A stretch of DNA of 64,000 nt, from the NCBI GenBank assembly GCA_905618945.1, contig CAJQTF010000001.1, positions 3,282-67,281 on the forward strand, read 5' to 3'. Of this stretch, positions 5,271 to 16,561 are shown one piece after another; positions within the stretch are counted from its first letter, which is position 1; each line of letters opens with the position of its first letter. Source of the stretch: an uncultured Methylophilaceae bacterium. GTDB lineage: Bacteria; Pseudomonadota; Gammaproteobacteria; Burkholderiales; Methylophilaceae. A model generated the notes under the pieces. The model was not told the DNA's origin. It saw nothing but the letters and a program-made list of their open reading frames with translations, and did not search any database. A program made the position numbers and the translations under genes.

Positions 5271-5315
5271 ACACATTACTCCAATAAAAATGGCATTATT
5301 TCAATAAAGCCTTAA

Positions 5316-5344
5316 ATTATAACTATTTTTTACGCTCTTAACAA
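5316..5344 (-). promoter_or_regulatory. Putative sigma70 promoter of alpha operon (rpsM)
   Basis: TTGTTA-17 bp-TATAAT on minus strand between rpmJ and rpsM. Confidence 0.65.
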
Positions 5345-5350
5345 TGTAAA

Positions 5351-9270: not shown

Positions 9271-9666
9271 CTATGATACGTAGCAAAGAACTTCGCCACC
9301 GATACCAGCAGCTCTTGCCTTAATATCAGTCATAACACCCTTGGAAGTTGTAACAATTGCAACTCCAAGCCCATTCATTACCCGAGGAAGGCTTTCGCTT
9401 CCTTTATATATTCTTAAACTAGGCTTACTAATTCTTTCAATTTTTTCAATAACAGGTTGTCCTGCATAATATTTTAAATCTATATTAAGTAATGGTTTCC
9501 CGTCATTTGCACTAACGCCGAAACTTTCAATATAACCTTCGTCTTTTAGAACATTAGCAATTGATTGCTTAATTTTAGATGCTGGCATTGATACGGAAAC
9601 CTTATTTCTCATTTGACCATTTCTAATTCTGGTTATCATATCTGCGATTGGGTCTTGCATGCTCAT
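9271..9666 (-). CDS. rpsH: 30S ribosomal protein S8
   Basis: [16 protein letters not shown]...TSKGVMTD...GGEVLCYV; start corrected to 9666 because the ORF-track start overlaps rpsN. Confidence 0.98.
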
Positions 9667-9986: not shown

Positions 9987-10631
9987 TTATTTATCTCCCT
10001 GCTGGTTTTCTACTACTGGAGCTTCCTCAGCTGGCTGAACTTCCTCAGCTGGCTTTACTTCCTCAGCTGGCTTTACTTCCTCAGCTGGTTTGGCTTTGTT
10101 AAATGGAAAACTAAAGGCTGACAAAAGTGCACTCGCTTCATCATCAGTTTTAGCGGTAGTTGTAATTGTGATATTCATACCTCTTAATTTATCTATCTTG
10201 TCATATTGAATTTCTGGAAAAATTATTTGTTCCTTAATTCCAAAATTATAATTTCCTCTACCGTCAAATGATTTTAATGACAATCCTCGGAAATCTCTTT
10301 CTCTAGGGATAGCAATATTAATTAACCTATCTAGAAATGTGTACATACTAGACTTTCTTAAAGTTACTTTACAACCAACAGGGTAATCATCTCTAACCTT
10401 AAAATTTGCTATTGATTTTTTTGCTAAAGTAACAATTGGTTTCTGACCGGCTATTTTTTCCATGTCAGCGACAGCACTATCCATCACTTTTTTGTCAGCT
10501 ACAGCTTCACCAACACCCATATTTAATGTGATCTTAGTAACTCTTGGAACTTCCATTACTGAAGAATATTTAAACTGTTTTGTGAGTTCTTTTACAACAG
10601 TGTCAAAATAAAATTGTTTTAGTCTCGCCAT
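9987..10631 (-). CDS. rplE: 50S ribosomal protein L5 with acidic repeat tail
   Basis: [29 protein letters not shown]. Confidence 0.98.
10022..10093. repeat. 4 tandem 18-bp units in rplE tail ((K/Q)PAEEV)
   Basis: cttcctcagctggcttta, two exact and two variant copies. Confidence 0.95.
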
Positions 10632-10639
10632 ATTTTTTC

Positions 10640-10957
10640 CTAAACGTCGATTGCTTCTTGATTAGATTTAAAGATTCTAATTTTTTTTCCATCTTTTAAT
10701 GTTTTAAATGTAACTTTGTCAGCCTTTGAGGTTGTATTATTAAAAATAGCAATGTTAGAAACATCCAAAGGCATTTCTTTACTTATAATTCCGCCTTGTT
10801 CACCTTTTCCAGGGTTTGGCTTTACATTTTTTTTGGCCATATTAAGACCTTCAATAACTACTCGCTTGTCATTAATAAACTCAGATAAAATACCTTGTTT
10901 ACCTTTATCTTTTCCAGTGTGGATAATTACTTTGTCGCCTTTGCGAATCTTATTCAC
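10640..10957 (-). CDS. rplX: 50S ribosomal protein L24 (GTG start)
   Basis: KIRKGDKV...[11 protein letters not shown] motif. Confidence 0.98.
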
Positions 10958-10968
10958 TTTTAATACTC

Positions 10969-11337
10969 CTAAATAACTTCTGATGCTAAAGATACAATTT
11001 TCATAAACTTCTCTGTTCTTAACTCACGGGTAACAGGTCCAAATATTCTAGTACCGATTGGTTCAAGCTTTGCATTTAAAAGAACAGCGGCATTACTATC
11101 AAACTTAACTAATGATCCATCTGAACGACGTACACCTTTTGCAGTTCTAACAACAACAGCATCGTATACTTCACCTTTCTTGACTCGGCCTCTTGGTGCT
11201 GCGTCTTTTATACTGACTTTAATAATATCGCCAATAGATGCATAACGTCTTCTTGAGCCACCGAGCACTTTGATGCACATAACTGAACGTGCACCAGTAT
11301 TGTCGGCAACTTCTAATCTTGACTGCATTTGTATCAT
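10969..11337 (-). CDS. rplN: 50S ribosomal protein L14
   Basis: [29 protein letters not shown]. Confidence 0.99.
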
Positions 11338-11345
11338 AAAATAAT

Positions 11346-11459
11346 CTCCAACTTAATCCGTTTAAATACTTAGCCTACATTTATAAGCTAACACCGCGGT
11401 CAGTATTGGGGCGCTAGCTAAATTTAAAATACGAGCGCCAAAAAGAAGCCTGCATTATA
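11346..11459 (-). promoter_or_regulatory. Structured spc-operon 5' leader (candidate S8-binding r-protein leader) with TATAAT -10 box
   Basis: TATAAT at 11454-11459; GGCGCT/AGCGCC hairpin; CCAATACTGACCG...CGGATTAAGTTGG stem reproducing the 16S h21 S8 core and pairing into the GGAG SD. Confidence 0.7.
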
Positions 11460-11494
11460 TGTTATTTTTATTAATAATCCTAACTTTGAGCTAT

Positions 11495-11860
11495 TTAGGT
11501 TTCTATCCTTGCTTTAGAAACTACTTTAGTCACAACCCAAGACTTACTTTTTGATATAGGTTTATGCTCGGTAATTTGAACCACATCACCCTCATTAATC
11601 TCATTTTTCTCATCATGTGCATGAAATTTATTTGATTGATTGATATATTTACCATACAAAGGATGTTTCACCTTTCTTTCAACAAGCACAGTAATTGTTT
11701 TATCCATCTTATTACTTGTAACTTTTCCAGTTACTGTTCTCTCAATTTTTTTAGCTACGGCCTTAACAGGGGCGGCCTTAACAGGGGCGGCCTTAACAGG
11801 GGCTTTTTTAGCTACAGTTTTAACAGGAGTTTTTTTAGTTGTTTTAGATTTATCTTCCAT
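11495..11860 (-). CDS. rpsQ: 30S ribosomal protein S17 with Lys/Ala/Pro-rich N-terminal extension
   Basis: [14 protein letters not shown]...HPLYGK...PISKSK; ATG 11860 has a GGGTGA SD (alternative start 11878). Confidence 0.96.
11758..11802. repeat. 3 exact 15-bp tandem copies in rpsQ N-terminus (APVKA)
   Basis: cggccttaacagggg x3. Confidence 0.96.
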
Positions 11861-11880
11861 TTTTTCTTTATCACCCATAA

Positions 11881-16461: not shown

Positions 16462-16492
16462 GATCTTTTCCTTATATTATTATTATTAAGAT

Positions 16493-16561
16493 AACCGATT
16501 ACAATTGATCGGTTTCTTTAAAAAGAGCGCTATTATATACCAACGCTTGCGTTTCTTACAA
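16493..16561 (-). promoter_or_regulatory. Putative internal promoter and leader hairpin upstream of rplC
   Basis: TTGTAA-18-TATAAT (16556-16561 / 16532-16537), GC-rich discriminator AGCGC, hairpin AACCGAT-caattgta-ATCGGTT. Confidence 0.55.

Follow-up and report, generated by a model that had tools for sequence, protein, structure and literature searches.

Protein S8 is a known repressor of the spc operon, and mimicry of rRNA by r-leaders is established. In E. coli, the S8-interacting RNA was placed over the start of rplE (PMC3616713, Fu et al. 2013), and its complex with S8 is PDB 1S03. The S8 site of 16S rRNA is a helix with an internal loop that contains the triples A595-(A596-U644) and (G597-C643)-U641, and the invariant A642 makes the sole conserved base-specific contact at this site (PMC4176348). 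A table of known r-leaders gives S8 for Gammaproteobacteria only, and none of the 20 new motifs of the same study precedes rplN or is betaproteobacterial (PMC7247131, Eckert and Weinberg 2020). In Escherichia coli, mRNA destabilisation mediates the retroregulation of rplN and rplX, and S8 regulation elsewhere was called unknown (PMC10931766).

The window analysed here is the whole stretch of 64,000 nucleotides from an uncultured Methylophilaceae bacterium, and carries the tuf-S10-spc-alpha ribosomal cluster on its minus strand. The source assembly measures 1.0 Mb and is 78% complete, and complete genomes of the genus measure 1.3-1.4 Mb. The RNA preceding rplN at this locus, and in Betaproteobacteria generally, is read as a uS8 autoregulatory leader of the spc operon, with a probability of about 0.83 judged from comparative sequence data. 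The leader is real, class-wide and apparently undescribed, and probably constitutes a new uS8 autoregulatory family.

The rplN leader in the window

Both strands of the S8-site mimic, both hairpins and the Shine-Dalgarno (SD) sequence that the sequence-only reading had listed were confirmed on the minus strand (Table 1), as was the identity of the outer GG of the stem with the GG of the rplN GGAG SD. The SD was called from its pairing to the 3' end of 16S rRNA, taken from a genome of the same genus, and sat 8 nt before the AUG at 11337. The gap between rpsQ and rplN was 157 nt, against 1-17 nt for the gaps inside the spc operon. The rpsH product of the window matched the S8 sequence of PDB 1S03 (E 4e-51).

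Table 1. Positions of genes and leader elements in the window, with the basis of each assignment
Feature	Position	Strand	Basis or remark
rpsH (uS8), operon gene 5, predicted ligand	9271..9666	minus	End-to-end alignment with E. coli S8
rplE start region	10540..10631	minus	Core letters through codon usage, without E. coli-type operator stem
rplN (uL14), spc operon gene 1	10969..11337	minus	ORF; 74% identity to E. coli L14
rplN Shine-Dalgarno GGAG	11346..11349	minus	GG is the G600/G601 equivalent of the stem
S8-site mimic, 3' strand	11348..11360	minus	Equivalents of 16S positions 589-601; one bulged A at 11357
U594-U598 equivalents	11355-11351	minus	A595, A596 and G597 are 11354-11352
Variable distal hairpin inside mimic	11365..11395	minus	Inner hairpin 11391-11370, extends to 11395-11365
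S8-site mimic, 5' strand	11397..11409	minus	Equivalents of 16S positions 637-649
A640-G645 equivalents	11406-11401	minus	A642 equivalent is 11404
Upstream hairpin	11410..11439	minus	Abuts the S8 stem, zero gap; lineage-specific sequence
-10 element TATAAT	11454..11459	minus	Predicted start ~11447, giving a 5' UTR of ~110 nt
-35 element, predicted spc promoter	11478..11483	minus	TTAGGA, 18-nt spacer; conserved in relatives
rpsQ (uS17), gene upstream of rplN	11495..11878	minus	ORF

The MFE structure of the window leader alone was the described fold. Its folding energy did not stand out (z of roughly -1.2 to -1.6), and the 1-Mb genome had 46 occurrences of both core strings within 8-110 nt of each other; because of this ordinary energy and these co-occurrences, the single window sequence is weak evidence for an S8 mimic. 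With 37 nt of coding sequence added, forming the stem cost ~4 kcal/mol (nearest-neighbour model, base triples omitted). The stem was then only ~8% populated and an alternative fold also paired the SD, so the on-state of the window leader was not cleanly predicted.

Some other features of the cluster were observed. In the window S8, TTS replaced the usual A642-stacking STS tripeptide, a point against the autoregulatory reading, and the Tyr85 equivalent was retained. The 94-nt rpsJ-rplC gap (16462-16555, minus strand) contained a TATAAT-like element and a small hairpin. In B. cenocepacia a primary start maps to -94 of rplC (PMC4603805 supplement), which suggests that betaproteobacterial S10 operons resume transcription at rplC; the gap is a candidate place for an L4-type leader. 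The TATAAT element in the 80-nt rpmJ-rpsM gap (5271-5350) is probably the alpha-operon promoter. Low-complexity extensions rich in Lys, Ala, Pro and Glu, unexpected in a streamlined genome, were present in S17 (N-terminal), L5, L15, S3 and L23 (11760-11878, 9987-10100, 7055-7200, 12504-12700 and 15100-15188, respectively). The extension of L5 was C-terminal, with three tandem six-residue repeats, and L36 had three additional C-terminal residues.

Occurrence of the leader and its place before rplN

Conservation of the core in relatives and a covariance model built from them, both proposed as checks by the sequence-only reading, gave results in its favour. Leaders were gathered from relatives, an even draw across the order and named contigs, and the strands CCAAnACUr and nAAGUUGG around a variable stem were present in 160 of the 164 distinct betaproteobacterial rplN leaders (a sample skewed to close L14 matches, with related members). 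The core with a four-pair closing stem arose in 20 of 3200 shuffles (0.6%), and by this comparison the window motif is non-random. Carriers by name included Comamonadaceae, Sphaerotilaceae, Burkholderiaceae, Alcaligenaceae, Methylophilaceae, Gallionellaceae, Nitrosospira, Rhodocyclaceae and Chitinibacteraceae, and the motif was also present in Comamonas and Neisseria gonorrhoeae. In an even draw of 141 genomes across the order, the covariance model matched 125, mostly with one match each. Two genomes under depositor restriction (G312 and G352) contributed to tallies only and underlie no sequence claim. The 16 misses were made up of six genomes with the motif by inspection, three with no rplN match in the assembly, four without the motif and three uninspected. 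Retention of the leader in streamlined genomes of 1.0-1.4 Mb suggests strong selection on it.

Applied to genomes outside the order (144 from the class, 140 from the phylum), the covariance model gave six weak matches (E 3e-4 to 0.1); all lay away from ribosomal-protein genes and were set aside as chance. Two pattern matches inside the rpsQ coding sequence were also rejected as chance, and a loose pattern search across the class returned matches at chance level and hence was uninformative. No true copy was present at rplN in 30 directly read leaders from other gammaproteobacterial orders, nor was there a copy at rplN in E. coli, Aeromonas, Pseudoalteromonas, Legionella, Acinetobacter or Sinorhizobium. 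A BLASTN search of the region against E. coli genomes returned nothing.

Several lineages departed from the usual arrangement. Four were motif-less (L212, L214, L215 and L220), with no substitute site found within 1.5 kb, a further point against S8 control; in two of these, rpsQ and rplN were fused (gaps of 6 and 22 nt), one being a 0.9-Mb genome. The motif-less family f20 retained a 193-nt AT-rich rpsQ-rplN gap. In Comamonadaceae and Sphaerotilaceae (L072, L078, L087, L244 and others), rpsQ was at least 800 nt from rplN or separated from it by unrelated genes, and the leader remained at rplN. A contig labelled Cytophagales (L133) had a betaproteobacterial rplN locus and one labelled Acidovorax (L100) a Methylophilus-like one; both assemblies are probably misbinned or mislabelled. 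An ACGG lay 7 nt 5' of the stem in 105 of the 160 leaders (e.g., L041, L205 and L243), frequently forming the 3' half of a small CCC/GGG hairpin; Methylophilaceae have a different hairpin in its place. A near-conserved A occurred three bases past the stem. The ACGG and this A may stack on the helix or extend it.

Of the 160 leaders, 93 had a sigma70-type promoter (TTG..N16-19..TAnnnT) before the motif, against 1 of 160 coding-region controls, and the conserved promoter was always at least 30 nt 5' of the motif. Close relatives had a -35 element of TTGAG type with a 17-nt spacer; the -35 of the window matched at only three of six positions, and hence was missed by a simple promoter scan. The primary start of rplN in B. 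cenocepacia J2315 is at -209, with only weak internal starts through secY (PMC4603805 supplement), and a contig identical to the B. cenocepacia promoter, with the same 209-nt spacing, carried the motif at -59 to -13. A Cupriavidus supplement had no rplN entry. Analogy with the B. cenocepacia dRNA-seq site, by which the start-site offset in the window was also set, supports the placement of the rplN motif in a transcribed 5' UTR.

The proposed control would begin with transcription from the conserved promoter ~110 nt upstream of rplN (the start having been measured in Burkholderia). The leader would then fold, as comparative data indicate, into a circularly permuted helix-21 internal loop with flanking helices, in which A596-U644, G597-C643 and U598-A640 would be paired and A595, N641 and A642 unpaired. 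Free S8 exceeding 16S rRNA would bind the loop and stabilise the marginal stem that ends in the GG of the SD, and the stabilised stem would block 30S loading on rplN. Repression would be expected to spread downstream, as in E. coli, via translational coupling or polarity across the gaps of 1-17 nt. It would thus include rpsH, which encodes the predicted ligand in the same operon as the leader. A marginal stem stabilised by protein, as the folding model has it, would fit a feedback switch.

In 137 of 160 leaders, 8-14 nt separated the end of the stem from the start codon; 128 of these 137 overlapped the SD. The best anti-SD duplex used the last two G of the stem in 137 of 160. No terminator-like U-run hairpin was found in the window leader, and a T5 run followed the motif in just 3 of 160. 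Both the spacing and the scarcity of U-runs count against an unlikely variant, in which S8 binds but does not act by plain SD occlusion: it would work through ribosome entrapment, Rho-dependent termination or mRNA decay, or its control would extend to rplN-rplX only. In favour of that variant, the motif was invariant even 30-65 nt from the AUG, where several motifs ended, or off the SD (Neisseria had a separate SD, and the best SD was formed without the stem GG in ~23 of 160 leaders, ~15%). The retroregulation of E. coli rplN and rplX by mRNA destabilisation (PMC10931766) points the same way, and the 5' hairpin and the conserved ACGG beside the stem are left unaccounted for by occlusion.

Likeness to 16S helix 21 and structure of the leader

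The E. coli 16S strings at 594-598 and 640-645 that the earlier reading had quoted were verified from MG1655. Its description of the leader as an exact mimic held for E. coli 16S but failed for the same-genus 16S, in which A641 and A645 take the place of the U641 and G645 of the leader; this comparison comprised two genomes, the assembly of the window being without its own 16S, and the window leader is probably not an exact match to the 16S of the organism itself. The permuted strand order that it shares with the E. coli spc operator was confirmed; that operator has A641 and C594, unlike the leader. The leader 639-599 pair was A-U, and the equivalent pair is G-C in E. coli 16S and in the operator, a difference that tells against S8 control.

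A595, A596, G597, U598, C638, A640, A642, C643 and U644 never varied in the 160 leaders. Position 641 was G in 68 leaders, A in 56, U in 36 and never C, position 645 was G or A, and position 594 was any of the four bases. The S8 determinants A595, A596, G597, A642, C643 and U644 were thus invariant, and the bases for both triples and the bulged A642 were present in all 160 matched leaders (triples taken from PMC4176348, the bases alone being read here). Because only four leaders failed the search that required the core, the invariance of the core is not a selection artefact. The same six bases were fixed in the 16S of 13 genomes of the order, and 594, 641 and 645 varied there similarly. This common pattern of fixed and free positions in leader and 16S is the strongest evidence pointing to S8 as the ligand, as judged by sequence comparison. 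Leader position 641 did not follow 16S position 641 genome by genome, and therefore no co-evolution is claimed.

A scan of E. coli 16S, 23S and 5S rRNA for the paired two-strand core found helix 21 alone. The lack of a similar site in 23S or 5S, the agreement of all seven core positions and of the bulge geometry with the S8 site, the coincidence of the free positions of the leader with those free in 16S, and the standing of S8 as the known spc repressor make it very improbable that the leader serves another ligand (L24, L5/L18, L14, L6 or a metabolite) and resembles helix 21 by coincidence. This alternative draws on the several rRNA-binding proteins encoded in the operon, and on the uncertainty of r-leader ligand assignment without experiment (PMC7247131).

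The covariation evidence for the leader stem is supportive rather than formally conclusive. In 83 aligned leaders, 86.8% of cells were paired and double changes were present in 9 of 13 pairs; none of 500 shuffles attained either value, and slid registers gave 20-51%. The sole variants at 637/601 and 639/599 were compensatory doubles (L115 and L080). The leaders are related, and in a tree-aware test the best covarying pair, 636-602, had only three independent contrasts; the core pairs yielded little covariation because they are invariant. RNAalifold gave a slipped register (A642 with U598), which was set aside, as RNAalifold ignores base triples.

The enclosed region measured 14-110 nt across leaders and folded better than shuffles (z below -1) in 144 of 160 (median z -2.5). 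An upstream hairpin with its end no more than 3 nt from the stem occurred in 148 of 160 leaders and in 55% of shuffles, and the median stem pair probability across leaders with coding sequence was 0.6. A transcription-factor DNA operator at the CCAA...TTGG inverted repeat, or a static structure with no role beyond tuning translation or mRNA stability, is also very improbable: the outer four pairs are sequence-invariant, as in a palindromic operator, and many members are predicted to form the stem as free RNA, but the half-spacing runs from 14 to >100 nt and the spacer itself base-pairs, an enclosed region that varies in length yet folds argues for RNA rather than a DNA operator, and the invariant unpaired A595 and A642 would be needless in a static structure.

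Origin, and comparison with known systems

In the window, Rfam 15 matched tRNAs only, with no match in 10500-11700 at gathering score or at E up to 10, in line with the earlier statement that no described family was known for this leader. No description of a betaproteobacterial rplN leader was found in the openly accessible literature searched. The leader would be a new Rfam family. For a class to which Neisseria, Burkholderia, Comamonas, Methylophilaceae and Gallionellaceae belong, the motif offers a candidate that is precise and open to mutation. The mechanism is not new in kind, as r-leader rRNA mimicry and S8 repression are both textbook matter.

As had been proposed, the rplE region of the window was unable to form the flanking stem, with 3 of 8 distal pairs; E. 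coli, Aeromonas and Pseudoalteromonas have the core and 7 of the 8 pairs there. Starts of rplE with the core and at least six distal pairs were found in 0 of 165 betaproteobacterial and 0 of 27 other-order sequences. The rplE operator and the rplN leader never occurred together in the sampled genomes, and most of the other gammaproteobacterial lineages sampled had neither. The proposal that S8 control had moved from rplE to the first gene was not upheld: because most other lineages have neither site, and because the flanking pairs differ, an independent origin is likelier than relocation. The fuller account is that the betaproteobacterial ancestor independently acquired a so far undescribed uS8 operator, now class-wide, by which the entire spc operon is repressed starting at its first gene; it is likely, though less so than the autoregulatory reading itself. 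If true, it would, alongside the E. coli rplE operator, mean that evolution has repeatedly arrived anew at S8 feedback, each time at another place in the operon.

Among more distant systems, Tsukamurella has a tiny S8-like hairpin around the rplN SD (L256:2177-2197), with the gene position and the predicted ligand in common with the betaproteobacterial leader. It differs in having the native strand order and the SD on the 640-645 strand, it gave no covariance-model match, and it is a separate solution. The lineage-specific r-leaders described previously (PMC7247131) and the several unrelated S15 and S4 leaders are, like the betaproteobacterial leader, class-restricted structured RNAs in 5' UTRs of ribosomal-protein operons, with rRNA mimicry.

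With 16S helix 21 (PMC4176348), the leader shares the invariant A595, A596, G597, A642, C643 and U644 and the tolerance at 594, 641 and 645, and its flanking helices span about the S8 footprint. It differs from helix 21 in its permuted strand order and in fixing U598-A640, a position at which betaproteobacterial 16S uses C-G and A-U too, and within one genome leader and 16S are frequently unlike at 641.

The gammaproteobacterial spc operator has most in common with the leader: the internal-loop core, the circular permutation in which the 640-645 strand leads, an extended distal stem of variable sequence, a bulged flanking helix, the operon, the predicted ligand and the overlap with translation initiation. 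The covariance model, with filters off, found no match in the spc loci of E. coli, Aeromonas and Pseudoalteromonas. The spc operator lies over the rplE coding start with the AUG inside its 5' strand, whereas the rplN leader is confined to the 5' UTR of the first gene, overlaps the SD via its 3' strand and, unlike the operator, has CCAA/UUGG flanks with A639-U599. On the reading preferred here, the rplN leader acts as the E. coli spc operator does, yet it stands outside the family of that operator.
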